Shown in pieces: positions 9,953-61,337 of a stretch of 64,000 bases of DNA. Numbering within the stretch: position 1 is the first letter of the stretch; each line of letters opens with the position of its first letter. Made by a program: the position numbers and the translations under genes. The notes under the pieces were generated by a model. It searched no databases. It worked only from the letters and a program-made list of their open reading frames with translations, and had not been told where the DNA came from. Location: the NCBI RefSeq assembly GCF_988243305.1, contig NZ_OZ547136.1, one strand, 5' to 3'.

Positions 9953-10146
9953 TTACTTTGCTCCATTCCGTGCTGGCTGCGCTTGCGGTCAGCACACCTC
10001 ACTTCTCGTGATCAAGATCACATTCTCGCTTTCCCCTGCGACACGGGTGTCGAATTCATTTTTTGCTGAACGTTAATGACCATCATTTTTGTACCGTTCA
10101 GAATCCAGTTAATACATAACTTATTGAATATATTAAATTAATCAGA

Positions 10147-10163
10147 CTGGCATCCTTTATGCA
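10147..10163 (+). promoter_or_regulatory. sigma54 (RpoN) -24/-12 promoter of the hyf operon
   Basis: cTGGCATcctttaTGCAa matches the TGGCAC-N5-TTGCA consensus with correct GG-to-GC spacing, about 40 nt upstream of the hyfA start; an adjacent sigma54 activator gene (hyfR) is in the operon. Confidence 0.6.
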
Positions 10164-10204
10164 ATATGAAATGCAATGTTTCATATCATTTTCAAGGAGC
10201 CGAC

Positions 10205-12840: not shown

Positions 12841-12850
12841 GGAAATCACC

Positions 12851-13798
12851 ATGAGACAAACTCTTTGCGACGGATATCTGATCATTTTTGCGTTAGCACA
12901 GGCCGTGATTCTGCTGGTGCTAACCCCGCTTTTTACGGGGATTTCCCGGCAGATACGCGCGCGAATGCACTCCCGTCGCGGACCGGGGATCTGGCAGGAT
13001 TATCGCGATATCCACAAACTGTTTAAACGCCAGGAAGTTGCGCCGACATCTTCAGGTCTGATGTTCCGCCTGATGCCGTGGGTATTAATCAGCAGCATGC
13101 TGGTGCTGGCGATGGCCCTACCACTATTTATTACCGTTTCCCCTTTTGCGGGCGGCGGCGATCTGATCACCCTTATCTATCTTCTTGCCCTGTTTCGTTT
13201 TTTCTTTGCTCTTTCAGGGCTGGATACCGGAAGCCCGTTTGCGGGAGTCGGTGCCAGTCGCGAGTTGACGCTCGGCATTCTGGTCGAACCCATGCTCATT
13301 CTCTCAATGCTGGTATTGGCGCTGATAGCGGATTCCACGCATATCGAGATGATCAGCAAGACGCTGGCGACGGGCTGGAACTCGCCGCTAACCACCGTAC
13401 TGGCGTTACTGGCCTGTGGTTTTGCCTGCTTCATTGAGATGGGAAAAATTCCCTTTGATGTTGCTGAAGCAGAACAGGAATTACAGGAAGGCCCGCTAAC
13501 CGAATATTCCGGTGCCGGGCTGGCGCTAGCGAAATGGGGGCTGGGGCTGAAACAGGTCGTGATGGCAGCACTGTTTGTGGCCCTGTTTCTGCCCTTTGGG
13601 CGCGCGCAAGAACTTTCTCTCGCCTGCCTGCTGACTTCACTTGTCGTTACGCTGCTCAAGGTTTTGCTGATTTTTGTACTGGCCTCAATCGCAGAAAACA
13701 CGCTGGCACGCGGGCGTTTTTTACTCATTCACCATGTGACCTGGCTTGGCTTCAGCCTTGCTGCGCTTGCATGGGTCTTCTGGTTAACCGGTCTGTAA
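12851..13798 (+). CDS. hyfC: hydrogenase-4 component C, NuoH/HycD-like membrane subunit
   Basis: ORF 12830..13798; polytopic membrane protein; start probably at the internal Met (MRQTLCDGY). Confidence 0.8.
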   Translation: MRQTLCDGYLIIFALAQAVILLVLTPLFTGISRQIRARMHSRRGPGIWQDYRDIHKLFKRQEVAPTSSGLMFRLMPWVLISSMLVLAMALPLFITVSPFAGGGDLITLIYLLALFRFFFALSGLDTGSPFAGVGASRELTLGILVEPMLILSMLVLALIADSTHIEMISKTLATGWNSPLTTVLALLACGFACFIEMGKIPFDVAEAEQELQEGPLTEYSGAGLALAKWGLGLKQVVMAALFVALFLPFGRAQELSLACLLTSLVVTLLKVLLIFVLASIAENTLARGRFLLIHHVTWLGFSLAALAWVFWLTGL

Positions 13799-13814
13799 GG
13801 AGCACTGACGGAAT

Positions 13815-15254
13815 ATGGAAAATCTTGCTCTGACGACGTTAATGCTGCCTTTTATCGGCGCACTGGTCGTTTCGTTTTCGCCACAACGTCGGGCCGCCGA
13901 ATGGGGGGTTTTGTTCGCCGCGCTGACCACGCTGTGCATGTTGTCACTGATCTCCGCGTTTTATCAGGCCGATAAAGTTGCCGTCACGTTGACGTTGGTC
14001 AACGTGGGGGATGTGGCGTTGTTTGGCCTGGTCATTGATCGCGTGAGTACGCTGATTCTGTTTGTGGTGGTGTTTCTCGGTTTGCTGGTCACGATCTACT
14101 CCACGGGTTATCTGACGGATAAAAATCGCGAACACCCGCATAACGGCACGAATCGTTATTACGCATTTTTGCTGGTGTTTATCGGCGCGATGGCGGGACT
14201 GGTACTCTCTTCGACGCTGCTCGGTCAGTTGTTGTTTTTTGAAATTACGGGCGGCTGCTCCTGGGCGTTGATCAGTTATTACCAGAGCGATAAAGCGCAG
14301 CGTTCGGCACTAAAAGCGTTGCTTATTACCCATATCGGTTCGCTGGGGTTGTATCTTGCCGCCGCCACGCTGTTTTTGCAGACCGGAACGTTTGCGCTTA
14401 GCGCGATGAGCGAGTTACACGGCGACGCACGTTATCTGGTTTATGGCGGCATCCTGTTTGCCGCGTGGGGGAAATCGGCCCAGCTACCGATGCAAGCGTG
14501 GCTACCGGATGCAATGGAAGCGCCAACACCGATCAGCGCCTATCTCCACGCCGCATCGATGGTGAAAGTGGGCGTTTACATTTTTGCCCGTGCCATTATC
14601 GACGGCGGCAATATCCCGCATGTGATTGGCGGCGTTGGCATGGTTATGGCACTGGTCACCATTCTTTATGGCTTCCTGATGTATTTGCCACAGCAGGATA
14701 TGAAGCGGTTGCTGGCCTGGTCGACCATCACTCAACTTGGCTGGATGTTTTTCGGCTTGTCGCTCTCCATCTTCGGCTCGCGGCTGGCGCTGGAGGGTAG
14801 CATCGCTTACATCGTCAACCACGCGTTCGCTAAAAGCCTGTTTTTCCTTGTAGCAGGTGCGCTGAGTTACAGCTGCGGCACGCGCTTGTTGCCGCGTCTG
14901 CGTGGCGTATTGCACACCCTGCCGTTGCCAGGCGTGGGTTTCTGCGTGGCAGCGCTGGCAATTACCGGCGTGCCGCCGTTCAACGGCTTCTTCAGTAAAT
15001 TCCCGCTGTTTGCTGCCGGTTTTGCGTTGTCAGTGGAGTACTGGATCCTGCTGCCCGCCATGATTCTGCTGATGATTGAATCGGTCGCCAGTTTCGCCTG
15101 GTTTATTCGCTGGTTTGGTCGCGTCGTGCCTGGCAAACCTAGCGAGGCCGTCGCCGATGCCGCTCCGCTGCCAGGATCAATGCGCCTGGTGTTGATTGTA
15201 CTGATTGTGATGTCGCTGATTTCCAGCGTAATCGCCGCGACCTGGTTGCAGTAA
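13815..15254 (+). CDS. hyfD: hydrogenase-4 component D, antiporter-like membrane subunit
   Basis: 479-aa membrane ORF with the WLPDAMEAPTP motif. Confidence 0.85.
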   Translation: MENLALTTLMLPFIGALVVSFSPQRRAAEWGVLFAALTTLCMLSLISAFYQADKVAVTLTLVNVGDVALFGLVIDRVSTLILFVVVFLGLLVTIYSTGYLTDKNREHPHNGTNRYYAFLLVFIGAMAGLVLSSTLLGQLLFFEITGGCSWALISYYQSDKAQRSALKALLITHIGSLGLYLAAATLFLQTGTFALSAMSELHGDARYLVYGGILFAAWGKSAQLPMQAWLPDAMEAPTPISAYLHAASMVKVGVYIFARAIIDGGNIPHVIGGVGMVMALVTILYGFLMYLPQQDMKRLLAWSTITQLGWMFFGLSLSIFGSRLALEGSIAYIVNHAFAKSLFFLVAGALSYSCGTRLLPRLRGVLHTLPLPGVGFCVAALAITGVPPFNGFFSKFPLFAAGFALSVEYWILLPAMILLMIESVASFAWFIRWFGRVVPGKPSEAVADAAPLPGSMRLVLIVLIVMSLISSVIAATWLQ

Positions 15255-15265
15255 GGAGATGATGA

Positions 15266-15916
15266 ATGACCGGTTCTATGATCGTAAATAATCTGGCAGG
15301 ACTGATGATGCTGACATCGCTGTTTGTGATTAGCGTCAAAAGCTATCGCCTGTCATGCGGATTTTACGCCTGCCAGTCACTGGTGCTGGTGTCTATTTTC
15401 GCCACCCTCTCGTGCCTGTTCGCCGCAGAGCAACTGCTGATCTGGTCCGCCAGCGCCTTTATCACCAAAGTGCTGCTGGTGCCGTTAATCATGACTTACG
15501 CTGCACGAAATATTCCCCAGAACATCCCGGAAAAAGCGTTATTCGGTCCGGCAATGATGACACTGCTCGCGGCGTTAATTGTCCTGCTTTGCGCATTTGT
15601 CGTTCAGCCCGTGAAGCTACCGATGGCTACCGGGCTGAAACCGGCGCTGGCGGTGGCGTTAGGTCATTTTCTGCTTGGCCTGCTGTGCATTGTCAGCCAG
15701 CGCAATATCCTGCGGCAAATCTTTGGTTACTGCCTGCTGGAAAACGGCTCCCATCTGGTGCTGTCGCTTCTAGCCTGGCGTGCACCGGAACTGGTGGAAA
15801 TTGGTATCGCTACCGACGCCATCTTCGCCGTCATTGTAATGGTGTTACTGGCAAGAAAAATATGGCGTACCCACGGCACGCTGGACGTGAACAACTTGAC
15901 CGCGCTGAAGGGATAA
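15266..15916 (+). CDS. hyfE: hydrogenase-4 component E, membrane subunit
   Basis: 216-aa hydrophobic ORF at the expected position. Confidence 0.8.
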
Positions 15917-15920
15917 TGAG

Positions 15921-17501
15921 ATGAGTTATTCTGTGATGTTCGCTTTACTCCTGCTCACGCCGCTGCTTTTTTCGCTGCTCTGTTTTGCCTGCCGAAAACG
16001 GGGGCACTCTGCGACTCGCGCGGTGACAGTATTACATAGCTTAGGGATCACACTGCTGCTGATTCTGGCACTCTGGGTGGTCCAAACTGCCGCTGATGCG
16101 GGAGAAATATTCGCTGCGGGACTGTGGCTTCATATTGATGGTCTGGGCGGTTTGTTCCTCGCCATTCTTGGTGTGATTGGCTTTCTCACCGGTGTTTACT
16201 CGATTGGCTACATGCGTCATGAAGTGGAGCACGGCGAGCTTTCACCCGTTACGCTGTGCGATTACTACGGTTTCTTCCATCTGTTTTTGTTCACCATGCT
16301 GCTGGTTGTTACCAGCAATAACCTGATTGTGATGTGGGCGGCGATCGAAGCCACCACCTTAAGCTCGGCGTTTCTGGTAGGCATTTACGGTCAGCGTTCA
16401 TCGCTGGAAGCTGCATGGAAGTACATCATTATTTGTACTGTTGGTGTCGCTTTTGGTCTGTTCGGTACCGTGCTGGTATACGCCAACGCCGCCAGCGTTA
16501 TGCCGCAGGCAGAAATGGCGATATTCTGGAGCGAGGTTCTTAAGCAATCGTCCTTGCTTGACCCAACATTAATGCTGTTGGCCTTTGTGTTTGTGCTAAT
16601 TGGCTTTGGCACTAAAACCGGGCTATTCCCCATGCACGCCTGGCTGCCAGATGCTCACAGTGAAGCGCCGAGTCCGGTCAGCGCCCTGCTCTCCGCCGTA
16701 TTGCTGAACTGCGCGCTGTTGGTGCTTATTCGCTATTACATCATTATTTGCCAGGCCATCGGCAGCGATTTCCCCAACCGGTTGTTGCTCATCTTCGGCA
16801 TGTTGTCGGTTGCCGTGGCGGCATTTTTCATTCTGGTACAGCGGGACATTAAGCGTCTGCTGGCGTACTCCAGCGTGGAGAACATGGGACTGGTCGCGGT
16901 GGCGCTAGGCATTGGCGGGCCGCTGGGAATTTTTGCCGCGCTGCTGCACACCTTAAACCACAGTCTGGCAAAAACGCTGTTGTTCTGCGGTTCCGGCAAT
17001 GTACTGCTCAAGTACGGCACGCGCGATCTCAACGTCGTCTGCGGAATGCTTAAAATCATGCCATTTACCGCCGTGTTGTTTGGCGGCGGTGCGCTGGCGC
17101 TGGCCGGGATGCCGCCCTTCAACATTTTTCTTAGCGAATTTATGACCGTTACCGCCGGACTGGCGCGTAATCATCTGCTGCTTATCGTCCTGCTGTTATT
17201 GCTGTTAACGCTGGTGCTGGCGGGCCTGGTACGGATGGCTGCGCGGGTGTTAATGGCGAAACCGCCGCAGGCCGTTAACCGGGGTGAACTTGGCTGGTTG
17301 ACCACCTCGCCAATGGTGATTCTGCTGGTCATGATGCTGGCGATGGGAACGCATATTCCACAACCTGTCATCAGGATCCTGGCGGGCGCTTCCACTATAG
17401 TCCTCTCAGGGACGCACGACCTGCCTGCACAACGTAGCACCTGGCATGATTTTTTGCCTTCAGGCACCGCATCTGTTTCGGAGAAACACAGTGAACGTTA
17501 A
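15921..17501 (+). CDS. hyfF: hydrogenase-4 component F, antiporter-like membrane subunit
   Basis: 526-aa membrane ORF with the [12 protein letters not shown] motif. Confidence 0.85.
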
Positions 17502-19206
17502 TTCATCGTCAAATCGTGGCGAAGCGATTCTCGCCGCCCTGAAAACGCAGTTCCCCGGCGCGGTGCTGGATGAAGAGCGACAAACGCCTGAACAGGTCAC
17601 CATTACGGTGAAAATCAATCTGCTGCCTGACGTTGTGCATTATCTTTATTATCAACATGATGGCTGGCTTCCAGTCCTGTTTGGCAACGACGAGCGGACA
17701 CTTAACGGTCATTACGCGGTTTATTATGCCCTTTCTATGGAAGGGGCCGAAAAATGCTGGATCGTGGTGAAGGCACTGGTCGATGCCGACAGTCGGGAGT
17801 TTCCGTCAGTCACACCGCGCGTCCCTGCCGCGGTCTGGGGCGAGCGAGAAATTCGCGATATGTACGGGCTGATTCCGGTTGGCCTGCCGGATCAGCGTCG
17901 CCTGGTGTTGCCCGATGACTGGCCGGAAGATATGCATCCGCTGCGCAAAGATGCGATGGATTATCGACTGCGCCCTGAACCGACGACTGATTCCGAAACG
18001 TATCCGTTTATCAATGAGGGCAACAGCGATGCGCGGGTGATCCCTGTCGGCCCGATGCATATCACCTCCGATGAACCGGGTCACTTCCGCTTGTTTGTGG
18101 ATGGCGAGCAAATTGTCGATGCTGATTACCGCCTGTTTTATGTCCATCGCGGCATGGAGAAACTGGCAGAAACGCGGATGGGCTACAACGAAGTGACCTT
18201 CTTATCCGACCGCGTGTGTGGGATTTGCGGTTTTGCCCACAGTGTGGCCTATACCAACTCGGTTGAAAATGCACTGGGGATTGAGGTGCCGCAACGAGCG
18301 CATACTATTCGCTCGATTCTGCTGGAAGTCGAACGGCTGCATAGTCATTTGCTCAACCTTGGCCTCTCCTGCCATTTTGTTGGTTTTGATACCGGCTTTA
18401 TGCAATTTTTCCGCGTGCGGGAAAAGTCGATGACGATGGCGGAATTGCTGACCGGGTCGCGTAAAACCTACGGTCTGAATCTGATTGGTGGTGTTCGCCG
18501 CGATATTCTCAAAGAGCAACGTCTGCAAACGCTGAAACTGGTGCGCGAGATGCGCGCCGACGTGTCGGAGCTGGTAGAGATGCTACTTGCCACGCCGAAT
18601 ATGGAACAACGCACTCAGGGCATTGGCATTCTCGACCGACAAATCGCCCGTGATTATAGCCCCGTAGGGCCGCTGATCCGCGGCAGTGGTTTTGCCCGTG
18701 ATTTGCGCTTTGATCACCCCTACGCCGACTACGGCAATATTCCCAAAACGCTGTTTACCTTTACCGGCGGCGATGTCTTCTCCCGCGTGATGGTCCGTGT
18801 CAAAGAGACGTTTGATTCGCTGGCAATGCTGGAATTTGCCCTCGACAACATGCCAGATACCCCACTGCTGACCGAAGGCTTTAGCTATAAACCTCACGCA
18901 TTCGCGCTGGGCTTTGTTGAAGCGCCACGTGGTGAAGACGTGCACTGGAGCATGCTCGGTGATAACCAAAAATTGTTCCGCTGGCGCTGTCGTGCCGCCA
19001 CCTACGCCAACTGGCCAGTGCTGCGTTACATGCTGCGCGGCAATACCGTTTCTGACGCACCGCTAATTATCGGTAGCCTTGATCCCTGCTACTCCTGTAC
19101 CGACCGTGTGACGCTGGTTGATGTGCGCAAGCGCCAGTCAAAAACCGTGCCGTATAAAGAGATCGAACGCTACGGCATTGATCGTAACCGTTCGCCGCTG
19201 AAGTAA
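17491..19206 (+). CDS. hyfG: hydrogenase-4 large [NiFe] catalytic subunit
   Basis: ORF 17446..19206; N-terminal RVCGICG and C-terminal DPCYSCTDR Ni-Fe ligand motifs; start uncertain, probably the GTG at 17491 overlapping the hyfF end. Confidence 0.8.
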
Positions 19207-39343: not shown

Positions 39344-39883
39344 ATGAAGAAAGTTTTTCTTTGCGCCATCTTAGCCTCCTTAAGCTATCCGGCTATCGCC
39401 TCATCATTGCAGGATCAACTCTCTGCTGTCGCAGAAGCGGAACAGCAAGGTAAAAATGAAGAGCAAAGGCAGCATGACGAATGGGTCGCGGAGCGCAACA
39501 GGGAAATCCAGCAAGAGAAGCAACGTCGCGCAAACGCCCAGGCCGCGGCTAATAAAAGAGCGGCAACGGCAGCGGCGAATAAGAAAGCTCGTCAGGATAA
39601 ACTGGACGCCGAAGCCTCTGCGGACAAAAAACGCGATCAAAGTTATGAAGATGAGCTACGCAGCTTAGAGATTCAGAAACAAAAACTGGCACTGGCGAAA
39701 GAAGAAGCCCGCGTTAAGCGAGAAAACGAATTTATCGATCAGGAACTGAAGCACAAAGCTGCGCAAACCGATGTGGTGCAATCTGAAGCTGACGCAAACA
39801 GAAATATGACTGAAGGCGGTCGCGATCTGATGAAAAGCGTGGGCAAAGCAGAAGAGAACAAATCGGACAGCTGGTTTAATTAA
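39344..39883 (+). CDS. yfgI: periplasmic protein YfgI
   Basis: 179-aa ORF with a signal peptide and a charged coiled-coil-like body; RBS aggagg upstream. Confidence 0.8.
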   Translation: MKKVFLCAILASLSYPAIASSLQDQLSAVAEAEQQGKNEEQRQHDEWVAERNREIQQEKQRRANAQAAANKRAATAAANKKARQDKLDAEASADKKRDQSYEDELRSLEIQKQKLALAKEEARVKRENEFIDQELKHKAAQTDVVQSEADANRNMTEGGRDLMKSVGKAEENKSDSWFN

Positions 39884-39923
39884 TCGATGTAAGTAACTTC
39901 AAGCCTATAATTCTTGAAGATAA

Positions 39924-39954
39924 AAAACCCTCTGTAGTAACAGAGGGTTTTGTT
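39924..39954 (+). terminator. intrinsic terminator after yfgI
   Basis: aaaccctctgtagtaacagagggttttgtt: 10-bp stem, 6-nt loop, T-run. Confidence 0.7.
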
Positions 39955-40210
39955 CATTCATAGTGCAGGGATCAAAATCATTCCCACTCAGCTATCAATG
40001 AGAAAATAAAATATAAATAAATCAATGCCTTGAAACAAACCACTTAGCAGATACCACGAAAAATACCATGTCTCAATAATAGAGCTGTCTACAGGCTGTT
40101 CAGACGAACAATATGGCCGCTCTACTCCTAATAGAGTCCTTAGCTCGGTCACATCACTAATTTCAACATAGATGTGAACAAAATGAGGCATCAACGCACC
40201 TATTCAGTTA

Positions 40211-41725
40211 GTGTATTTGATATCGTATGTGGCAACAAAAAATGGAGTTACAATCTTGAAAGTAAGCGAGTTATCTAGCCAAATTGGCCGACTTTACGGC
40301 TTAAACAACATCAACATAATTATGGGCCGAAACGGTGCGGGAAAAAGTCGTTTCCTTCGTGATATCGAACAAACAATCAGCCAGAACAAGCAGCAATTTT
40401 ATGTCCGGTATGTAAGTCCAGAGCGAGCAGGATCGTTCAAGCGTGATGGCACCGTCCTCACAAATATGAGCGACAACCCCGAATGGCTGAGGCACACTCG
40501 GGCAGTTAATCAGGCAAGCAACTTCAAAGCTGCATCGGCTATGCTATTTCGCGAGGCCGAGACGCTTTACTTACGTCGACTTGCCAATACTCCGGAAATT
40601 CGAACTGATCTAACGCGAAACTTTCAGACAGACCGATTAAGTAAAATTAATCAGCTTCTCACTAACATTTCGCTCGAGATGGGTAATGTCGATTATGAGT
40701 TTCGATCACTTGTAGATGGTCAGATTATTGATCCGGCCCAAATCAGTAGCGGTGAATCGGAAGCGGTTGCATTAGCCGCGGAAATCATCTATTTCTTCGA
40801 CACAATAGATCCGGAGAAATTCAACGTACTCCTCCTCGATGAGCCTGATGTACATCTGCACCCCGACCTCCAAGCTAGACTGGGCAAGCTGATAATCAGT
40901 ATGCTCGACGAATTTAGAACACACGCGAACAGTATTGCCATATGCTTATCCACCCATAGTTCCCCGCTCGTCTGTTCTCTTGCCGCCTCCCCATATGTAT
41001 CAATCGGCACGAAGAGCTTTGCAGTGAATGAAATCTCATTGATACCGGCCAGCGATGAACTTCGAAAGATTGCACCATTCTTCGGGCACCCCCTATCGCT
41101 TTCTCTTAGCGAAGACGCTGCATTAATTTTGGAAGGAGAGGACGACGAACGAGTCTGGCAACAAGCGGCCAGAACATCACAGGGTCGAATAAAAATCTTT
41201 CCCGTACTAGCAGGTAGCGTAGATCAACAGAGTCAACTTGAGGATTTTTGCGTAGACCTCCTTAGTACACTCTATGACAATCCAATCGCCTTTTCCCTTC
41301 GTGATGGCGATGGTGTAATCAACGAGTCGCTTGAACATCGCCTACCTCTTAAACGCTATCGCTTACGATGCTACGCTATCGAAAATGTTCTTTTGACTGA
41401 TTCATGCCTTGCAGTAATGAATGTTACATGGGTGGAATTTGTAGACGCAGCCAAAAAATGGGTTGAGGATAATCAAACACACTCCGACATAGCGTTGATT
41501 GCAGAACTAATGGAATCGAACGACCGATTGCGTCACAAGAAGATCAAGAAAATCCGCCAACTCGTCTGTGCTATTGTTGAGTGTAAAAAACCTTGGGAGG
41601 TAGTAGTTGGACAAGCAATCGGGGCATTGACCAGAGAAGACCTTGAAAACTCGAATATGTTGATCGATTTTCTTGGAGGAGAGATGGTCAGCGACGTCAT
41701 CTTCAGGGACGCAATAAACCCATGA
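40211..41725 (+). CDS. ABC-type (AAA_21-like) ATPase with C-terminal TOPRIM/DUF4435-like acidic region; candidate OLD/PARIS-like anti-phage nuclease (accessory)
   Basis: Walker A GRNGAGKS, signature-like ISSGESEA, Walker B/D-loop LLLDEPDVHLHPDLQ, H-loop LSTHS; C-terminal about 200 aa carry LEGEDDE and RDGDG acidic motifs; no TM segments; probable true start TTG at 40256 preceded by ggag. Confidence 0.55.
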   Translation: MYLISYVATKNGVTILKVSELSSQIGRLYGLNNINIIMGRNGAGKSRFLRDIEQTISQNKQQFYVRYVSPERAGSFKRDGTVLTNMSDNPEWLRHTRAVNQASNFKAASAMLFREAETLYLRRLANTPEIRTDLTRNFQTDRLSKINQLLTNISLEMGNVDYEFRSLVDGQIIDPAQISSGESEAVALAAEIIYFFDTIDPEKFNVLLLDEPDVHLHPDLQARLGKLIISMLDEFRTHANSIAICLSTHSSPLVCSLAASPYVSIGTKSFAVNEISLIPASDELRKIAPFFGHPLSLSLSEDAALILEGEDDERVWQQAARTSQGRIKIFPVLAGSVDQQSQLEDFCVDLLSTLYDNPIAFSLRDGDGVINESLEHRLPLKRYRLRCYAIENVLLTDSCLAVMNVTWVEFVDAAKKWVEDNQTHSDIALIAELMESNDRLRHKKIKKIRQLVCAIVECKKPWEVVVGQAIGALTREDLENSNMLIDFLGGEMVSDVIFRDAINP

Positions 41726-41740
41726 GAATGACCTGATACT

Positions 41741-42136
41741 ATGACCACGATTGATCCGCCCTCATGGTATCAGTATTTATTTTATAACCCGCCTCTCAAT
41801 ACACCAAGAGATTGCGGTAAAGTGGAGCAGCATGATTACCAGCTTTATCTGGCGATAAATGATATTGAGCATACGAAAACGAAAGCAATGTCATCTAAGA
41901 CCAATAGTATCTGCGAGCAGTTCCATAAAACGATACTGAACGAGTTTTATCAGGTGACGTTCCGCAAAAAGTTATATGATGATCTTGAAGCATTACAATC
42001 GGTTCTTGATGAATGGCGGGTTCACTATAATAATGAGCGAACCCATCAGGGAAAAATGTGCAGTGGCCGAACGCCGATGGAAACGTTACTTGATGGAAAG
42101 CACATCTGGGATGAGAAAAACTTAAGCCAGATGTAA
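41741..42136 (+). pseudogene. remnant of a DDE (rve integrase-core) transposase, C-terminal fragment
   Basis: 131-aa ORF containing ...TNSICEQFHKTILNEF...WRVHYNNERTHQGKMCSGRTPMETL, the characteristic C-terminal segment of rve-type transposases; no N-terminal HTH or full DDE triad. Confidence 0.6.
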
Positions 42137-42229
42137 TCTGACAGATACCTTTATAAATAGCCGGTAATTGTCAGATCAGGTCTGATCTTATACAACTTAA
42201 CTGTGTTATGAGCAATACTGAGGATAGAT

Positions 42230-43000
42230 ATGGAACCAGAGAAATTTGCTGAAACTGCAATAGGATTTACCAAAAGCCCTCTTGGTATCATTGCACTCTT
42301 TATTGTTCTCGTTTATGGATTTGCCTCTTTCGTCGTTGGCTTTGGTAATGGCTTATCAGAGCATATAGCTCCCCTTATTTATTTCATGGTTTTCTTTCCT
42401 GTCATTGTGTTTCTTGGCTTTCTCTGGCTTGTTGCGAAACATCATAATAAGCTTTACGGGCCGTCAGATTTCAAAGATGAAAATAATTTTTTAAGAGCGC
42501 AAATAGCTACAGCAGCATCATTGACCGCCGCCACAGCAAAACAGCCTGAAAATAGTGCAGGGGTCACTGAAAGCCAACTGCGAAAAATCGTCAACGTTGT
42601 ATCCAATGCAAAACGGCAGAGTAAGCATGAAAAATGGCGAAATCGTATTTTATGGGTGGATGATCGACCAGAAAATAATGTTTACGAAAGACAGGCATTT
42701 GAGGCACAGGGAATAGAGTTCGCTTTAGCTCTTTCAACTGACGAAGCCTTAGAATTGTTAAAAACAAATAAGTTTGCAGCTATTATTTCGGATATGGATC
42801 GCAAAGAAGGGGCGCAAGAAGGTTATGTCTTACTAGAAAGATTACGCGCAATGGGAGACAAAACTCCTTTTATGATCTATGCGTCCTCAGATCTACCAGA
42901 GCACAAGAAAATGGCGAGAGAAAGAGGTGCAATTGGCTCCACTAATCGAGCAGAAGAACTCTTTCAAATTGTCATGGGTGCGATTACCAATGGCTCATAA
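42230..43000 (+). CDS. membrane-anchored stand-alone receiver (REC/CheY-like) domain protein (accessory)
   Basis: ATG preceded by gagga; two predicted TM helices near the N-terminus; C-terminal about 120 aa align by eye to CheY (ILWVDDRPEN / ISDMDR / TPFMIYASS); AT-rich codon usage. Confidence 0.55.
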   Translation: MEPEKFAETAIGFTKSPLGIIALFIVLVYGFASFVVGFGNGLSEHIAPLIYFMVFFPVIVFLGFLWLVAKHHNKLYGPSDFKDENNFLRAQIATAASLTAATAKQPENSAGVTESQLRKIVNVVSNAKRQSKHEKWRNRILWVDDRPENNVYERQAFEAQGIEFALALSTDEALELLKTNKFAAIISDMDRKEGAQEGYVLLERLRAMGDKTPFMIYASSDLPEHKKMARERGAIGSTNRAEELFQIVMGAITNGS

Positions 43001-43220
43001 CAAAGCCATTAAATTCGCCCCCTACGGCTACGGTTGCCGGGCGCTCACAACGGCCAGTATCTCATTTGTCGATTTGATCGATCTCATTGTAAGCACTTCC
43101 GGCTAGACTATTTTGGAATACCGCCATTTTGTTGGTAATGGCTTTTATCTTTAGGCCATAGCCGATGTTATAGAGTTACGGCCTTAAAAATAGAAGTCAT
43201 ACACTCAATGAAAAACCAAT

Positions 43221-43250
43221 AAAAAATGCCAGTCAGCAAACTGACTGGCA
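43221..43250 (-). terminator. intrinsic terminator of guaA
   Basis: On the minus strand tgccagtcagtttgctgactggcatttttt: 10-bp stem plus a U-run immediately after the guaA stop. Confidence 0.7.
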
Positions 43251-43294
43251 TTAAAGTTAGTTGGAAAGGCTTAATTTACTATTTATAGCCAGTC

Positions 43295-44872
43295 CTACTC
43301 CCACTCAATGGTAGCTGGCGGCTTGCCGCTGATGTCATACACCACGCGGGAAATACCGTTCACTTCATTGATAATGCGGTTGGAAACGCGACCGAGGAAG
43401 TCATACGGCAGGTGCGCCCAGTGTGCGGTCATAAAGTCGATGGTTTCGACAGCACGCAGAGAAACAACCCAGTCATACTTACGACCATCGCCCATTACGC
43501 CAACAGAACGTACTGGCAGGAAGACGGTGAACGCCTGGCTGACTTTGTCGTACAGGTCCGCTTTACGCAGTTCTTCAATGAAGATGGCGTCAGCACGGCG
43601 CAGCAGGTCACAGTACTCTTTCTTCACTTCACCCAGAACACGAACGCCAAGGCCTGGTCCCGGGAACGGGTGACGGTACAGCATGTCGTACGGCAGGCCC
43701 AGCTCCAGACCAATCTTACGCACTTCGTCTTTGAACAGCTCTTTCAGCGGTTCAACCAGGCCCATCTTCATCTCTTTCGGCAGGCCGCCCACGTTGTGGT
43801 GAGATTTGATGACGTGTGCTTTACCGGTTGCAGAAGCAGCAGATTCGATAACGTCAGGGTAGATAGTGCCCTGCGCCAGCCACTTCACGTCTTCCAGTTT
43901 CAGCGCTTCTTCATCGAATACTTCAACGAAAACGCGCCCGATGATTTTACGTTTTGCTTCCGGATCATTTTCGCCAGCCAGCGCTGACAAGAAGCGATCT
44001 TCTGCCGGTACATGAACAATGTTCAGACCAAAGTGATCGCCAAACATATCCAGAACCTGCTCTGCTTCGTTGAGACGCAGCAGGCCGTTGTCGACGAATA
44101 CGCAAGTCAGGTTTTTACCGATAGCGCGGTGCAGCAGCATTGCAGTCACGGAGGAATCCACGCCACCAGAGAGGCCGAGGATCACTTTATCGTCGCCTAC
44201 CTGCTCGCGGATGCGAGCTACGGCGTCGTCGATAATTTTCGCTGGCGTCCACAGGGCTTCACACTGGCAGATATCACGCACAAAACGCTCCAGCATGCGC
44301 ATACCCTGGCGGGTGTGAGTCACTTCCGGATGGAACTGTACACCATAGAAGCGTTTTTCTTCGTTAGCCATAATGGCAAACGGGCAGCTTTCGGTGCTGG
44401 CTACGGTGACGAAGTCGGACGGGATAGCGGTAACTTTATCGCCGTGGCTCATCCAGACATCGAGCAGCGGTTTACCGTCTGCAGTCAGCGCATCTTCGAT
44501 ACCGCGAACCAGTGCGCTGTCGTTTACGACTTCAACCTGCGCGTAGCCAAATTCACGTTCGTTAGAGGCTTCAACGTGACCGCCCAACTGCATTGCCATG
44601 GTCTGCATGCCATAGCAAACGCCGAATACCGGTACGCCTGCTTCAAAGACATACTGCGGCGCACGCGGGCTGTTTTCTTCGGTGGTGCTTTCCGGGCCGC
44701 CGGAAAGAATAATGCCGCTTGGGTTGAAGTCACGAATTTGTGCTTCTGTCACATCCCACGCCCACAGTTCGCAGTAAACACCCAGTTCACGCACGCGGCG
44801 CGCAACCAGTTGAGTGTACTGAGAACCGAAGTCCAGAATGAGGATGCGATGCTTATGAATGTTTTCCGTCAT
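43295..44872 (-). CDS. guaA: GMP synthase (glutamine-hydrolysing)
   Basis: 525-aa ORF with an N-terminal class-I glutamine amidotransferase and a C-terminal ATP-pyrophosphatase (SGGVDSS). Confidence 0.95.
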
Positions 44873-57199: not shown

Positions 57200-59407
57200 T
57201 TATTTTTTGGTATACAGCACGCGTAAACCGTATCCCTGCAAGCCATCTCCCGCTTGTGCGCCATAGGTTTGCGCTGCTTCGCGGTTAGTGGCCGGAATCA
57301 CAATGTCCTCATTGGAAGTGTTCGCCTGTGCACCCACTTCACCATTGATGCTCTTGCCGGTAAATTCCCACTTGTAGTCGTACTGCGCCATCTCTTCGTC
57401 AGTCAGTTTTTCGACCTGCTGGAAGACACCGTCTTTATTGCTGTCACGCCACAAAACAAATCGATAAGTGTTGTTGAGCGGCAGCGGTTCTTTATCTTTA
57501 CCTATCAGGTTGCTGGGTTTAGCTGCCCCCACACGATAGATAAATGCATTTAGCCCACCAATTTCTGCCCCGAGGAAAGTGACATCCACATAGTTACTGT
57601 CGTCGTAGGGCGCAGCTTTTGCTTTCCAGCGATAGGTGCCGGGTAAGGTACTGGAGAGGGTGACAGTGCCCTTTTCTTTATCTTGTTTAGCGATAAAAAC
57701 GCAGGGGTTGTCGGTCGAGCAAGGCTTGTTGGTTAACGTCACTCGTTTGTCCTGCGCGTCGTAAAGCTGCGGCGTGAGGTTATCTTCCGGCAGCGCATCG
57801 CCATTGCGGTCGGTGTTATCGCCAAAGCTGTCGGTTACATCGAGATCCATCACCACACCATCAACGCCATCTGCCTGAGCGCTGGCTTCGTGGCTGTGGT
57901 TGTTCTCTTCCGGCACGTTCGCGATGTTATTAACAATCAACTCTATTTTACGGTCCTGCTGAACGGTGATTTCCACCACGCCAGAGTTCTGTCGGTTGCC
58001 CTTTTCATCTTCCAGTGCCAGACGTACTCGCCAGGTATTGAGTTTTTCTTGTTCGGCTTTGTCAGAGCTGTACTGCCAGGCGGGCAGCACCAGGTTCCAG
58101 TGGTTATTGTTACCCTCTGTCAGGGTATTCTCTTTGATAACCGGCATAACCAACGTGCGGGCAGCATTGTTTTTCGCCTGCCATGACGCAGCGACAATTT
58201 TGTAGTGGTGGTTGATAAGCGCGTTAATGGTCCACTTACATTTTTCCAGCCCGACGGCCGCTTCGGGAGTGTCCTTAATGACGCACTCAGGGTGCTCGTT
58301 GGTGGCATCCGCTTTTAACCACAGGGTGACATCAAGCGGATCTTTTTCTTTGTATTCCAGAACAATAAAGTTATTACGCTCAACAAAATCATGACGACTG
58401 CCCATCAACGAGTGAGCCGCTTTCACTTTATCGCTATCCAATTGATCTTTTAGCGGAACGCCGAACTGATAATTAAGAGTGGCATTAATGCTGACATCGC
58501 TGTTATCTCCGGTCCCCGCTTTATAGTCCGCCCCAACGGTTAGTAATGGCACCGGTTGATAATTCAGTCCAAGTGTTACCGCGTAGGGATCTTTCTCCAA
58601 ATTATCCGTACCAAAAAGGGCGACTTCATCGCCGTAATATTGCTCGAAGACAACTTTGCCCCCCAGTTGCGGATAAGAAGGTAACCAGGCTTCGGCACGA
58701 ATATCCCAGCCGCGCGCAGGGCGTTCTTCATAAAAGCCGAAATCTTCAGAGTCTTTCCAGTCAGAAAGCGGATGATAATAGTTGCCAGAGAATTTTAAAT
58801 AATCAGTCCACGCTTCGCCGCCTAAACCTAAACGGCGATGTCCTCGGGTAAAATCATAATCATAAAATACATTTCCACCCAATAACCATTCATTAAAATT
58901 ATGTCTTACCCCAAGACCAATATTCCCGATTGTACGATCTTCTTTTCGTTGCGCAGAAAATTGACTGAAATAAACAGTGGTTTGATTATCGTACCAGGGA
59001 ACAAAATAATCGATGGAACTGCCATCCAGATCGCCGCCCTGGCCAATGGAGAGGTTCGAACGGACCTTACCGTAGGGAGAGAGAGTGTCTTCAATATAAG
59101 ATTGTGCGGTTGAGATGATTTGACTTTGCAGATAGCTTCTGGCCTGAGATTCCAGCGCCTCAGGGGTCAAGTTTTCAAACCCTTGCGTGGCGGAGTTGAT
59201 GACGTAATCGGCTCCGCGCTCTTTCAGCGATTTACCCTTGTTGGTTTGTTCATCCCGCTGTGCTGCCTGGCTACCTAAATCAGGTAACGATTCGTTTTGC
59301 TTAACATTTATCTCTGGTGCCGCGAAAGCAGCACCAGAGATAAATGTTAGAATAATACAGCGTTTCCATCGCAGCATGCACTTTCCCTGTGACAATGATA
59401 CAGTCAA
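57200..59407 (-). CDS. intimin/invasin-family inverse autotransporter, SinH-like
   Basis: 735-aa ORF; probable start at the internal Met (MLRWKRCIILTFISGAAFA signal peptide); N-terminal half has alternating beta-strand patterns typical of the intimin/invasin barrel (GLGVRHNF, LNYQPVPLLTVGADYK), followed by a passenger domain. Confidence 0.75.
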   Translation of the reverse strand: MTVSLSQGKCMLRWKRCIILTFISGAAFAAPEINVKQNESLPDLGSQAAQRDEQTNKGKSLKERGADYVINSATQGFENLTPEALESQARSYLQSQIISTAQSYIEDTLSPYGKVRSNLSIGQGGDLDGSSIDYFVPWYDNQTTVYFSQFSAQRKEDRTIGNIGLGVRHNFNEWLLGGNVFYDYDFTRGHRRLGLGGEAWTDYLKFSGNYYHPLSDWKDSEDFGFYEERPARGWDIRAEAWLPSYPQLGGKVVFEQYYGDEVALFGTDNLEKDPYAVTLGLNYQPVPLLTVGADYKAGTGDNSDVSINATLNYQFGVPLKDQLDSDKVKAAHSLMGSRHDFVERNNFIVLEYKEKDPLDVTLWLKADATNEHPECVIKDTPEAAVGLEKCKWTINALINHHYKIVAASWQAKNNAARTLVMPVIKENTLTEGNNNHWNLVLPAWQYSSDKAEQEKLNTWRVRLALEDEKGNRQNSGVVEITVQQDRKIELIVNNIANVPEENNHSHEASAQADGVDGVVMDLDVTDSFGDNTDRNGDALPEDNLTPQLYDAQDKRVTLTNKPCSTDNPCVFIAKQDKEKGTVTLSSTLPGTYRWKAKAAPYDDSNYVDVTFLGAEIGGLNAFIYRVGAAKPSNLIGKDKEPLPLNNTYRFVLWRDSNKDGVFQQVEKLTDEEMAQYDYKWEFTGKSINGEVGAQANTSNEDIVIPATNREAAQTYGAQAGDGLQGYGLRVLYTKK

Positions 59408-59586
59408 AAATAAGCTTTAATATTGTATCCCTGATTATTCAGAAAGGCATGTCATAAAGAATAAATATATTCTTAATTATTTAAATTAGTGATTTCACTC
59501 AATTACATTAGTTATTCCACTAATAACAGATTGTTTTACCATTCACATATTAAATATAAATGATAAAACAATATATTCACATGATA

Positions 59587-59802
59587 TTAAGCAATAACAA
59601 ATTCAACGCGTTTTTTAGATATTAAACCGTGCCCATGTTGGCAAAAATAGTCCACAGCACCACAAGCTTTTAACACTTGTAACGGCTGATGACACTCAGG
59701 GCAAAGTGCCTGGACGGTAAAGTCTTTGTCGCAAGTTGCACAGTGGGCAGTCTCGCCATTGCGTTCGAGAGGGGTTTTGCAGATTGGACAGTTGAGTGCC
59801 AT
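59587..59802 (-). CDS. yfgJ: zinc-ribbon protein YfgJ
   Basis: 71-aa ORF with two CxxC pairs (CPIC...CATC and CPEC...CQHGH). Confidence 0.8.
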   Translation of the reverse strand: MALNCPICKTPLERNGETAHCATCDKDFTVQALCPECHQPLQVLKACGAVDYFCQHGHGLISKKRVEFVIA

Positions 59803-59864
59803 AAATACTCCTCGCGTGTTATTCGGTTTCCCTCTCCGTGTGGAAAGGGAAACCAGATAAGTGA

Positions 59865-61337
59865 TTACTTACTTTTCTTGATATGCTTCATCAGGCGCTT
59901 ACGCTTGCGCATCTGGGTTGGCGTCAGGGTATTACGCTTGTTCGCATACGGGTTTTCCCCTTCTTTGAACTGAATACGAATCGGCGATCCCATTACGTCC
60001 AGCGATTTGCGGAAGTAGTTCATCAGGTAACGCTTGTAGGAATCAGGCAGGTCTTTCACCTGGTTACCATGAATCACCACAATCGGCGGGTTATAACCAC
60101 CGGCGTGGGCATATTTCAGCTTCACACGACGACCGCGTACCAGCGGCGGTTGGTGATCTTCAACAGCCATCGTCATGATGCGCGTCAGCATAGAGGTCCC
60201 CACACGACGGGTGGAGCTGTCATACGCTTCACGCACTGATTCAAACAAGTTACCAACACCACTGCCGTGCAAGGCAGAGATAAAGTGCACACGAGCAAAA
60301 TCGATAAAGCCCAGACGGAAGTCCAGCGTTTCTTTCACCTGCTCTTTCACTTCCTGGCTCAGGCCATCCCACTTATTCACCACAATGACAAGTGAGCGCC
60401 CACTATTGAGAATAAAGCCCAGCAGGGAGAGATCCTGATCGGAAATACCTTCGCGGGCGTCAATCACCAACATCACCACGTTGGCATCTTCAATGGCCTG
60501 CAACGTTTTGATTACCGAGAATTTCTCTACAGCATCGGTGATTTTGCCACGTTTACGTACGCCAGCGGTGTCAATGAGCACATACTCACGTCCATCGCGT
60601 TCCATTGGAATGTAGATACTGTCACGCGTCGTACCAGGCATGTCATAAACAACAACGCGCTCTTCACCAAGAATACGGTTAGTGAGTGTAGACTTACCTA
60701 CGTTCGGACGACCCACAATCGCCAGTTTGATCGGCAGACTTTGCGGGTCGAAGTCGTCTTCCTCTTCTTCTTCGCCGTTTTCTTCTGCTTCAAATTGCGC
60801 CCAGTATTCGGCGTCTTCGTCGACTTCTTCTTGCGGTGCGAGATCTTCCATCCACGGCAGCAGCACGTGCTCCAGCAGACTTAATACGCCACGACCGTGA
60901 GACGCGGCGATCGGGTAGATTTCCCCTAAACCAAGCGAGTAGAAATCAACCACTGCCTGATCGGGATCCAGACCGTCAGTTTTGTTTGCCACCAGGAAGG
61001 TCGGTTTTTCACGGGAGCGCAGATGTTTAGCAATCGCTTCATCCGCCGGCATCAGGCCCGCGCGCGCATCCACCATAAACAGTACGACGTCCGCTTCTTC
61101 AATCGCCAGCAGCGACTGTTCCGCCATGCGGGTTTCTACACCGTCTTCTGTGCCATCAATCCCGCCGGTATCAATGCAGATAAACTCACGGCCTTCAATT
61201 TCTGCACGACCGTACTTACGGTCACGAGTCAGACCCGGGAAATCCGCAACCAGCGCATCTCGGGTGCGAGTTAGACGGTTAAATAACGTGGATTTTCCTA
61301 CGTTAGGGCGCCCGACAAGCGCGACCACAGGTACCAT
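59865..61337 (-). CDS. der: ribosome-associated GTPase Der (EngA), tandem GTPase domains
   Basis: ORF 59865..61376; start at the internal Met ([17 protein letters not shown]); two G1 motifs GRPNVGKS plus a KH-like C-terminus; 490 aa. Confidence 0.9.

Follow-up and report, generated by a model that had tools for sequence, protein, structure and literature searches.

Within the window, i.e., the whole stretch of 64,000 nucleotides of contig NZ_OZ547136.1 that was analysed, a 3.3-kb islet at the 3' end of guaA harbours a gene which is real, intact and stand-alone (Table 1). The open reading frame 40211..41725 (+) is present, and its coding sequence, counted from TTG 40256 to the stop at 41725, encodes 489 amino acids. 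This start, together with its preceding ggag, had been favoured in the initial annotation, and RefSeq/PGAP concurs exactly (WP_085458947.1, 'AAA family ATPase', 489 aa). The ribosome binding site lies eight nucleotides 5' of the TTG, and both elements are invariant across the copies from E. coli, Klebsiella, Enterobacter and Pseudomonas. The GTG at 40211 was rejected as start, as the frame beginning at this codon is disrupted by a 1-nt indel in the copy from Pseudomonas and PGAP annotates the TTG. A database search returned 856 homologues of the protein and a further search 148 clusters (50% identity, E<1e-30), nearly all of 470-500 aa, hence the open reading frame is not a chance one. Homologues from different bacterial classes share 66-94% amino acid identity, and between the E. 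coli and the Pseudomonas gene codon positions 1 and 2 are identical at 0.86 and 0.90 respectively, with 0.45 at 4-fold sites; very strong purifying selection thus appears to have acted on the whole protein. The family is large, is found in many phyla and has both sets of catalytic residues complete and conserved. An AF2 model of the protein reached a pLDDT of 92.9 and a pTM of 0.82, and a literature search by the accession WP_085458947.1 gave no match.

Table 1. Features of the islet and of the 489-aa protein encoded therein (positions refer to the window).
Feature	Position	Strand	Remarks
Distal att-type repeat TCATTCCCACTCA	39978..39990	+	copy of the K-12-type guaA 3' end, contains core TCCCACTC; left boundary of islet and of mobile cassette
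Conserved non-coding leader	39991..40255	+	RBS GGAG 40244-40247; alignment of E. coli, Klebsiella, Enterobacter, Pseudomonas
CDS, ABC-ATPase-TOPRIM(DUF4435) fusion (predicted), WP_085458947.1	40256..41725	+	homologues, family alignment, AF2 model
Minimal ABC ATPase domain, residues 1 to about 255	40256..41020	+	Pfam AAA_15/AAA_21/ABC_tran/SMC_N; PDB profile search; invariant columns
Walker A	40325-40348	+	within ABC ATPase domain
Signature SSGES	40745-40759	+	within ABC ATPase domain
Walker B (VLLLDE)	40826-40843	+	within ABC ATPase domain
H-loop (THS)	40952-40960	+	within ABC ATPase domain
Predicted AriB-type TOPRIM/DUF4435 nuclease domain and C-terminal helical subdomain, residues about 270-489	41063..41722	+	
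Putative catalytic acids	E293 (41132-41134), D296/D297, D350-x-D352 (41303-41311), E376 (41381-41383)	+	
Intrinsic terminator, stem CTGATACTATGA / TCATGGTATCAG, then T-rich tract TATTTATTTTAT	41733..41785	+	conserved in four species
guaA-proximal att-type repeat CTACTCCCACTCA	43295..43307	+	gives guaA its present stop codon; right boundary of 3.3-kb islet

The complete islet occurs in 27 out of 5426 complete E. coli genomes and in every locus the gene has a lower GC content than the host, from which it follows that the gene was horizontally acquired. NZ_CP062824.1 is among the genomes with the islet, whereas MG1655 lacks it. Homology to K-12 stops at 39990 and restarts at 43299 with an overlap of 9 bp, and the copies of the core TCCCACTC at 39982 and 43299 flank the islet at the guaA 3' end. 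On the opposite strand this core reads GAGTGGGA, which experiments have defined as the core for GIsul2 recombination at guaA (PMC9376610), and the direct repeats with the GAGTGGGA core at this position give the islet the make-up of a GIsul2-type guaA-site unit. Two repeats also flank the Pseudomonas cassette, where the gene stands in tandem with an ICE. The other cargo of the islet is an IS481 fragment and a membrane-anchored receiver protein, and cassette homology with Pseudomonas and Enterobacter stops at about 41785-41799. The gene itself appears to travel as an integrase-less unit of 1.8 kb, consisting of conserved leader, gene and terminator. The GIsul2 integrase is documented to mobilise integrase-less att-flanked units at guaA (PMC9376610), and the 1.8-kb unit, bounded by GIsul2-type att cores, would presumably be mobilised in trans by an integrase of the GIsul2 family.

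In the 265-bp leader, indels among the four genera are not multiples of three, and the identity between E. coli and Pseudomonas was identified to be 0.72 as compared to 0.45 at the 4-fold synonymous sites of the gene. A role as structured RNA or riboswitch was dismissed (unfavourable RNAalifold covariation term, single-sequence z-score of -0.18, no Rfam match), as was that of a small ORF or antitoxin, the 68-aa minus-strand ORF 39988-40194 being fragmented or frame-shifted in Klebsiella, Enterobacter and Pseudomonas. Likewise, the leader is not wholly an att arm common to the neighbouring ICE, as the match with the second Pseudomonas repeat covers about 65 bp at its start and not the other ~200 bp. 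Neither a conserved small ORF among the leader copies of the four genera nor, in a promoter scan of the leader, a convincing sigma-70 site was found. Presumably, the leader holds a promoter or operator and additionally short att-arm sequences. For the terminator, a compensatory change was identified in the Enterobacter copy.

The initial annotation had ascribed a full ABC/AAA_21 motif set to the N-terminus, and all motifs that it quoted for the protein locate to invariant or at least 90% conserved columns of the 74-sequence family alignment, from which motif conservation was read with residue numbers counted from the TTG. Walker A corresponds to G24..K30-S31, the signature to S164-S165-G166-E167, Walker B/D-loop to D195-E196-P197-D198, followed by H200, H202 and Q206, and the H-loop to T233-H234-S235, whereby K30, S31, S164, D195 and H234 are invariant and E196 is at least 90% conserved among the 74 sequences. 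The Pfam matches that had been anticipated for this region were obtained with AAA_15 (1.7e-10) and AAA_21 (2.2e-9; PF13175/PF13304 being the ids used for the group match) and extend to all 74 family members, with ABC_tran and SMC_N matching the N-terminus weakly. The four motifs and the Pfam match place the domain with the ABC-type ATPases of the AAA_15/AAA_21 (OLD/PARIS/Septu) group. When the family profile was searched against the PDB, AriA came first (1e-15), followed by the retron/Septu PtuA ATPases, GajA (2e-12) and Eco8 OLD. Between Walker A and the signature lies a short helical insert (residues about 60-135), which consists in the AF2 model of short helices only (residues 65-132). Within the profile alignment, positions 10-43 of the family pair with AriA 19-52 and positions 105-239 with AriA 304-433; as a consequence, about 60 aa replace about 250 aa of AriA, and the AriA-type helical/coiled-coil domain with IS1 and IS2 is absent, in agreement with the AF2 model.

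The acidic clusters pointed out earlier for the C-terminus are present as well, and across the family alignment their acidic residues are invariant or nearly so: 'ILEGEDDE' represents E293-G294-D296, 'SLRDGDG' D350 and D352, and 'YAIEN' C372, E376 and N377. The set E293/D296-297/D350/D352/E376 parallels the AriB metal ligands E26/D30/D88/E90/E122 in order and spacing, and the invariant acidic columns fold as a TOPRIM, with a glutamate after strand 1, a DxD and further acidic metal ligands. Among 5027 PADLOC models the isolated domain matched AriB/AriAB only (AriB E 1.3e-5, with relatives reaching 2.5e-6), and the OLD and GajA TOPRIM models gave no match. The top six Foldseek matches of this domain were the Xcc and Bp OLD C-terminal regions and AriB, and its fold also matches the TsOLD and BpOLD TOPRIMs; a non-nuclease fold, which would have spoken against the initial annotation, was hence not what the fold searches gave. 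Of the C-terminus expected there, TOPRIM_OLD or DUF4435, the AriB/DUF4435 type was favoured by PADLOC, Foldseek and those 8 of the 74 members that match Pfam DUF4435 (PF14491) at E<=1e-3 (21/74 at E<=0.1), whereas the protein itself matches DUF4435 non-significantly (E 0.36-0.41) and OLD-like_TOPRIM (PF20469) was reached by one member out of 74 at 1e-3. Neither phmmer nor a profile of the C-terminal half recovered a TOPRIM protein from the PDB sequences (spurious matches were, e.g., Borrelia outer-surface proteins), and the C-terminal half had no match in PHROGs. The identity of the C-terminus became apparent only from family-wide scans, the PADLOC AriB model and fold searches. On these grounds, the domain is assigned as a predicted AriB-type (DUF4435) TOPRIM nuclease. 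For the full-length model, the comparison with OLD and GajA that had been called for returned the two-domain OLD nucleases Eco8 OLD and GajA as best fold matches. Domain matches and fold searches both support the earlier reading of an OLD/PARIS-like single-chain protein, and its ATPase-TOPRIM identity is considered very likely.

The stand-alone organisation claimed before was borne out by 57 loci from many phyla, the flanking ORFs of which were clustered all-against-all: no family occurs in more than three loci and guaA alone recurs (three loci). With no recurrent partner family in these loci, the gene represents a single-gene system. Neighbours are unrelated among the Pseudomonas, Mesorhizobium, Sphingobium, Klebsiella and Enterobacter loci, and a permease, Mre11/SbcD or other conserved partner was not found among the 57. 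A GajB-type or other helicase, a reverse transcriptase or a PtuB HNH protein neither adjoins the gene in the window nor recurs in the 57 loci, and Rfam identified no retron or other ncRNA within 39850-43350. The neighbour with a TM-receiver architecture was discarded as a conserved partner, as it is common only to the near-identical Klebsiella islet and lacks a PADLOC match. In a small sample (n=8) of immediate neighbours from distant lineages, hand-picked from ORFs that looked real, five gave defence-profile matches (type I R-M HsdS, PD-Lambda-2_B, an LmuA-like protease, PDC-S23 and a CBASS 4TM effector). The P. aeruginosa copy adjoins an HTH-STAND NTPase on an ICE, and some alphaproteobacterial copies sit between housekeeping genes. 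Searches of phage and plasmid collections did not recover the gene, the lone 'plasmid' match being a 4.9-Mb chromosome filed as plasmid.

The gene product is probably a compact anti-phage suicide enzyme, and we put the probability of the whole statement, i.e., a compact single-chain OLD/PARIS member whose ATPase serves as sensor and switch for a two-metal TOPRIM effector that acts abortively, in cis and on tRNA, at roughly 0.6. Taken separately, an anti-phage role is likely, with tRNA as substrate being a tentative proposition. What the enzyme cuts (tRNA or DNA), what triggers it and how it oligomerises are given below as we infer them. The protein would be a stand-alone enzyme of the abortive-infection type, the ABC domains of which may form a head-to-tail, ATP-dependent dimer that silences the covalently joined TOPRIM domains. 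A cue associated with infection would then, in concert with the binding or hydrolysis of ATP, rearrange the dimer and thereby allow the two TOPRIM/DUF4435 domains to pair and to cut. Host tRNA is considered the most likely substrate; it would be cleaved within the anticodon arm as reported for AriB and P2 OLD, which would stop translation and phage growth. Without the IS1/IS2 coiled-coil scaffold of AriA no PARIS-style hexamer releasing AriB is expected, and activation would have to be a conformational switch in cis. The very strong purifying selection suggests that the cue sensed is a conserved one (e.g., a change of host state) rather than a fast-evolving phage protein. Sensors engaged in an arms race do not typically retain 66-94% amino acid identity between bacterial classes, and the absence of the gene from the phage and plasmid collections searched, like the housekeeping neighbours in some alphaproteobacteria, goes against a reading as defence gene. 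A more far-reaching version assumes a 'mini-PARIS', i.e., an AriB-type tRNase joined to a stripped-down ABC ATPase which has lost the AriA scaffold and sensor insert, senses in cis perhaps a conserved host process, is found in many phyla and travels in gamma-proteobacteria as an att-flanked one-gene cassette borrowing GIsul2-type integrases at guaA; taken as a whole, this version is rather unlikely.

Three other explanations were weighed against the tRNA-cutting, abortive enzyme. The protein might be a class-1-OLD-like DNA nuclease which nicks or degrades phage or host DNA, as is reported of TsOLD and GajA in vitro, and which is triggered by DNA ends or the RecBCD status. Its single-gene organisation resembles class 1 OLD (PMC10568477), GajA and Eco8 OLD come closest in fold to the full-length model, the C-terminal domain is matched by the TOPRIMs of TsOLD and BpOLD, and the strong conservation is in keeping with a sensor of host state, which OLD has been proposed to be; even so, this explanation is regarded as unlikely. 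Alternatively, the gene could be an addiction or competition module of the islet, i.e., a toxin-like nuclease by which the element at the guaA site is stabilised or rival elements are kept out, with phage defence being secondary or absent. This would account for a gene that is always the terminal cargo beside the att core of a guaA-targeting element, stands in tandem with an ICE in Pseudomonas, moves with its conserved leader and was not found in the phage genomes searched. However, neither an antitoxin-like partner (57 loci) nor a conserved small ORF was found, the gene lacks the guaA context in alphaproteobacteria and many other phyla, and homologous ATPase-TOPRIM systems are established anti-phage systems (PMC11464382; PMC10568477), which renders such a module quite improbable.

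A housekeeping ABC/SMC-type ATPase for repair or transport (RecF/SbcC/ABC-transporter) with coincidental nuclease-like acids is suggested by the weak Pfam ABC_tran and SMC_N matches and by JGI auto-annotations, which label relatives as ABC transport ATPases. This explanation is effectively refuted, given that merely 27 of the 5426 E. coli genomes carry the islet, low GC marks the gene as horizontally acquired, the NCBIfam transporter and repair models stay far below their cutoffs, the 57 loci lack a permease, Mre11/SbcD or other conserved partner, and the invariant C-terminal acids fold as a TOPRIM. The clustering with RecF/SbcC-type factors and a conserved partner, named initially as what would speak against an effector, was seen neither in the PDB profile search nor in the 57 loci.

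ATPase-TOPRIM systems (OLD, Gabija, PARIS, retron effectors) figure prominently in bacterial immunity, and to our knowledge the sensing of infection by the ATPase and the release of the nuclease are understood only for large multi-subunit assemblies. The large and highly conserved 489-aa family keeps both catalytic centres and drops the scaffold and sensor insert; no simpler system would hence be available in which to study how the ATPase signals to the TOPRIM and how the trigger is recognised. Whether class-1-style single-gene systems confer broad phage defence, a point listed as an open question in the OLD review (PMC10568477), would become apparent from it as well. The att-flanked one-gene cassette moreover illustrates how a defence gene may spread without an integrase of its own. 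For now, the family is a well-founded candidate rather than a discovery.

In terms of context, though not of function, the islet shares with GIsul2/CR2-sul2 the recombination core at the guaA 3' end, but lacks integrase, sul2 and ISCR2 and carries the ATPase-TOPRIM gene, the IS481 fragment and the receiver protein instead. Among known ATPase-TOPRIM systems, class 1 OLD (P2 Old, Thermus scotoductus OLD) is defined as single-gene (PMC10568477), as is the case here with no conserved partner in 57 loci, and P2 OLD severs tRNA anticodon stems (PMC12445682); however, the TOPRIM of the 489-aa protein appears to be of the DUF4435/AriB sequence family rather than PF20469, its ATPase possesses a shorter helical insert, and no Old model was among the best 25 of 121 PADLOC families for the full-length protein. 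Gabija GajA (class 2 OLD) and retron-Eco8 OLD (class 3) provide the best full-length fold matches, with the alignment of the family profile to GajA running from the Walker B region as far as TOPRIM strand 1. In contrast to both, the gene has no adjoining GajB-type helicase, reverse transcriptase or ncRNA, and the protein is shorter and without the class 2 TOPRIM helical insert; the NCBIfam PtuA and Eco8 models gave 30 bits as compared to cutoffs of 250-500.

Parallels were also found to PARIS. AriA is the best solved-structure match to the family profile of the AAA_15/21-type ATPase, the predicted DUF4435/AriB-type TOPRIM has the same five acidic positions, and both domains are encoded by one gene as in 'merged' AriAB. 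Two merged clades, 1 and 2, are counted among the 11 PARIS clades. Phages or satellites frequently carry PARIS, whereas the phage collection searched did not yield the 489-aa family. Size distinguishes the two further, with 489 aa here as compared to about 760 aa for AriA plus AriB and 570-694 positions for the merged AriAB models. In AriA, IS1, IS2 and the coiled coil scaffold a trimer of dimers (hexamer), whereby IS1 is predicted to recognise the trigger, and IS2 and the coiled coil serve assembly (PMC11464382); about 190 aa of these coiled-coil/helical insertion sequences are missing from the 489-aa protein. The merged AriAB model PDLC02981 matched with 50.7 bits (residues 85-396 against positions 220-523 of 694), PDLC02982 was not among the PADLOC matches listed for the protein, and distant relatives of 470-490 aa reached 64-77 bits at most against the AriAB model, all of which falls short of a strong full-length match. 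The loss of the insert and the partial match of about 51 bits agree with the 'minimal or divergent variant' considered in the initial annotation. PARIS is characterised by its activation through a phage anti-restriction protein (Ocr) and by tRNA cleavage. AriB cleaves tRNA-Lys, tRNA-Thr and tRNA-Asn (PMC12409363), and a covalent fusion, in difference to two-gene PARIS, cannot be activated by AriB release. Single-gene ATPase-DUF4435 fusions have already been described as a form of PARIS (PMC9122126; PMC11464382), and judged by its sequence the gene reported here is a compact variant of the PARIS/OLD family.

The open reading frame was found to be real and intact, with its start placed by PGAP at TTG 40256, a choice which the initial annotation, pointing to the preceding ggag, had already considered the likely one. 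This start is supported by the invariance of both the TTG and the GGAG eight nucleotides upstream across four species and by the Pseudomonas copy, in which a 1-nt indel breaks the frame of the longer candidate starting at GTG 40211. A database search returned 856 homologues, with copies of 66-94% amino acid identity residing in Klebsiella, Serratia, Enterobacter, Pseudomonas aeruginosa, Mesorhizobium, Microvirga, Rhodoplanes and Sphingobium. Exhaustive searching of 50%-identity representatives identified 148 clusters at E<1e-30, nearly all of 470-500 aa and aligning end to end, and scanning of genomes extended the family to Bacteroidota, Cyanobacteria, Chloroflexi, Actinomycetota, Verrucomicrobiota, Acidobacteriota, Legionella and several CPR phyla. 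No literature on WP_085458947.1 was found. The full ABC motif set and the C-terminal acidic clusters quoted from the sequence by the initial annotation all fall on columns that are invariant or at least 90% conserved in a 74-sequence alignment of the family. Purifying selection is strong across the whole protein, as between E. coli and Pseudomonas the first and second codon positions are 0.86 and 0.90 identical with synonymous sites being saturated.

Features of the guaA-proximal islet and conserved residues of the ATPase-TOPRIM protein (nucleotide positions in the window; residues numbered from TTG 40256)
Feature	Position	Strand	Remark
Left islet repeat	39978-39990		TCATTCCCACTCA
Cassette leader	39991-40255		about 265 bp
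ATPase-TOPRIM ORF	TTG 40256 to stop 41725	+	PGAP, WP_085458947.1, 'AAA family ATPase', 489 aa
Cassette intrinsic terminator	41733-41785		conserved; compensatory stem change in Enterobacter
IS481-family transposase, C-terminal fragment	41741-42136; PGAP pseudogene 41813-42136		NCBIfam NF033577, 9e-23, profile positions 206-283 of 284
Membrane-anchored receiver-domain protein	42230-43000	+	WP_085458948.1, 256 aa, orphan 'response regulator'
Right, guaA-proximal islet repeat	43295-43307		CTACTCCCACTCA
Conserved ATPase motifs	K30/S31; S164-G166-E167; D195/E196; H234		Walker A; signature; Walker B; H-loop (74-sequence alignment)
Conserved residues of the C-terminal half	E293-G294-D296; D350-x-D352; C372...E376-N377		74-sequence alignment

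Within the ATPase half, Pfam AAA_15 and AAA_21 were identified in 74/74 family members. A search of PDB sequences with the family profile was led by AriA (1e-15), followed by retron and Septu PtuA ATPases, GajA (2e-12), the retron-Eco8 OLD nuclease and TsOLD; transport ABC proteins and Rad50/SMC ranked far lower, and all NCBIfam transporter, repair and retron-effector models scored far under their cutoffs. The profile alignment pairs family residues 10-43 with AriA 19-52 and 105-239 with AriA 304-433, hence some 60 residues of the family stand in place of about 250 in AriA. The family lacks the AriA coiled coil along with insertion sequences IS1 and IS2, a region which builds the trimer-of-dimers propeller and is predicted to recognize the trigger (PMC11464382). 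As this region is without counterpart, and residues 65-132 form short helices only in the full-length AF2 model (pLDDT 92.9, pTM 0.82), the ATPase is, judged by sequence and model, a stripped-down version.

Assignment of the C-terminal half had to rely on HMM libraries and predicted structure, since its profile yielded spurious matches only when run against PDB sequences. Pfam DUF4435 matches the E. coli protein alone weakly (E 0.36), is significant in 8/74 members and reaches E<=0.1 in 21/74, while OLD-like_TOPRIM matches a single member (1/74). When the C-terminal domains of eight diverse members were run on their own against 5027 PADLOC models, AriB or AriAB were the sole matches (AriB at 1.3e-5 for the E. 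coli domain), and the fused AriAB model aligns to the full-length protein up to residue 396, thereby covering E293, D350/D352 and E376. The C-terminal domain was also modelled separately (AF2 pLDDT 90.6), and its six best Foldseek matches are OLD C-terminal regions from Xanthomonas and Burkholderia and AriB. The two-metal site of AriB is formed by E26, D30, D88, E90 and E122 (PMC11464382); in the family, E293, D296/D297, D350, D352 and E376 follow in the same order with similar spacing. On these grounds we conclude that the C-terminus is predicted to be an AriB/DUF4435-type TOPRIM nuclease with its catalytic residues complete, which bears out the TOPRIM/DUF4435-like domain initially proposed from the acidic clusters.

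The gene resides in an Escherichia coli chromosomal segment of the order ppk-ppx-pdeF-yfgG-yfgH-yfgI ... guaA-guaB-xseA, where the 92-bp gap between yfgI and guaA of K-12 is filled by about 3.3 kb of low GC (0.42-0.46), the insertion relative to K-12 spanning 39991-43298 (blastn). The complete islet occurs in no more than 27 of 5426 complete E. coli genomes. Next to the ATPase-TOPRIM gene it carries an IS481 fragment, for which ATG 41741 was rejected as start because it sits within the terminator loop of the cassette, and the gene of WP_085458948.1. The latter protein possesses an N-terminal membrane segment (residues ~20-75) and a C-terminal receiver domain, its N-terminus being weakly similar to phrog_26238 (1.6e-7); the scans run detected no output domain, PADLOC gave no match and no kinase is annotated inside the islet. 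Its gene is shared with the near-identical Klebsiella aerogenes islet, whereas in Enterobacter an unrelated 302-aa ORF takes the place of this gene. Directly past yfgI, a strong, bidirectional-looking hairpin (AAAACCCTCTGT...ACAGAGGGTTTT, 39924-39951), probably the yfgI terminator, also flanks the cassette in two other enteric metagenomic copies (L095, L097). Elsewhere in the window, the composition profile revealed a second GC dip (0.445) at 58001-60000, which could be another acquired segment, and a strongly negative AT skew (-0.17 to -0.24) over 10000-18000.

DNA homology among the E. coli, Klebsiella, Enterobacter and Pseudomonas copies extends from 39977 to about 41795, covering the leader, the gene and the intrinsic terminator, and begins in every copy with TCA(T/C)TCCCACTC, the reverse complement of the last guaA codons. 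Directly repeated copies of the guaA 3' end, which share the core TCCCACTC, border the islet, and the guaA-proximal repeat now supplies the guaA stop codon (TAG versus TGA in K-12). Read on the opposite strand, this core gives GAGTGGGA, which experiments have established as the core at which GIsul2 recombines at the 3' end of guaA; the GIsul2 integrase was shown to move, in trans, att-flanked units that have no integrase of their own (PMC9376610). The islet itself has retained no integrase. As in Pseudomonas a 1.9-kb cassette lies between two such repeats (L003, the P. aeruginosa locus, 6705 and 8636), in tandem with an ICE, and the same pair of boundaries recurs in the Klebsiella copy (L010, 5742/9015) and one metagenomic copy (L098, 3606/6931), the gene appears to spread in gamma-proteobacteria through the guaA hotspot, as a cassette of one gene that is flanked by att sites and carries no integrase. 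In related species the hotspot holds other small cargo: upstream of the K. aerogenes cassette, an antitoxin gene of the PhdYeFM type and its 110-aa partner (L010, 4999-5595), and in E. bugandensis the 302-aa ORF, which matches RT-associated-HEPN faintly (L011, 8309-9217; E 9e-4).

The cassette leader is non-coding: the lengths of its indels are not divisible by three, and it holds no conserved small ORF. It is nevertheless constrained, with an E. coli-Pseudomonas identity of 0.72 versus 0.45 at 4-fold synonymous positions in the gene. It yielded no evidence of a conserved RNA structure, no Rfam family and no convincing sigma-70 promoter match, and its resemblance to the second Pseudomonas att copy is limited to the first ~65 bp, the other ~200 bp being unlike. 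The simplest guess at its role is regulation at the level of DNA.

That the protein stands alone, as initially surmised, is confirmed by unrelated neighbours at the Pseudomonas, Mesorhizobium, Sphingobium, Klebsiella and Enterobacter loci and by all-against-all clustering of flanking ORFs, which yielded no neighbour family in more than three of 57 loci, the three-locus families being guaA, unrelated response regulators and recombinases. It is thus a single-gene system. In every host examined, the GC content of the gene is below that of its surroundings, and searches of phage and plasmid collections did not recover the gene. Five of eight real-looking immediate neighbours from ten diverse loci match defence profiles (type I R-M specificity subunit, PD-Lambda-2_B, LmuA-like protease, PDC-S23 and CBASS 4TM effector), which supports a defence role, the sample being small and hand-picked. 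Pointing the same way, the P. aeruginosa copy adjoins an HTH-STAND NTPase of 1341 aa at the margin of an ICE that carries a T4SS. This HTH_3-STAND protein (nSTAND_NTPase5/AAA_16, Avs-like architecture; L003 8885-15473, CP075851.1) is encoded directly past the second att repeat of the cassette, with DUF2274, TrbI and CagX genes of a conjugative element coming next, and has the look of another defence-type cargo placed at the ICE end.

The data document one chain combining a minimal ABC ATPase with an AriB-type TOPRIM, the catalytic residues of both being complete. By analogy with OLD, GajA and PARIS, a head-to-tail ABC dimer around ATP would restrain the nuclease, until an infection-linked cue together with ATP turnover rearranges the dimer, whereupon the TOPRIM/DUF4435 domains may pair and cut. 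The PARIS mechanism, in which a hexamer releases AriB, cannot apply, as the nuclease is fused covalently to the ATPase and no AriA scaffold exists. AriB cuts tRNA in the anticodon arm as a dimeric endonuclease (PMC11464382, PMC12409363), and tRNA is also acted on by P2 OLD (PMC12445682), which makes tRNA the most likely substrate by analogy; DNA is the main alternative. The most variable, indel-bearing segments, namely residues 106-120 and 136-160 of the ATPase insert and 391-420 of the helical subdomain past the TOPRIM, are candidate recognition surfaces. For a protein that would sense rapidly evolving phage proteins, this one is unusually well conserved overall, which hints that the cue is a conserved one. 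The protein represents the smallest architecture of its class and, with a predicted function, makes a good, well-defined experimental candidate, but the underlying concept is already established.

Among known systems PARIS is the closest, and ATPase-DUF4435 fusions in a single gene are already known for it (PMC9122126, PMC11464382). The AriA insert and scaffold are, however, both absent from the family, and the full-length match to the PARIS AriAB models is weak (51 bits, partial coverage), with the most distant 470-490-aa relatives scoring just 64-77 bits. Class 1 OLD shares the single-gene organisation but differs in that the TOPRIM of the family does not belong to the OLD-type sequence family, and the partners defining Gabija, Septu and retron effectors are absent beside the family genes. 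The OLD- or PARIS-like reading of the initial annotation is sustained by the AriA-led PDB search and the AriB-type C-terminus, and its suspicion of a minimal or divergent variant by the shortened insert and the low AriAB score. Lacking the AriA insert and a strong AriAB match, an OLD-type TOPRIM and the Gabija, Septu or retron partners, the protein is canonical in no named subclass, and on sequence and model grounds we file it as a putative new and compact OLD/PARIS-like ATPase-TOPRIM effector.
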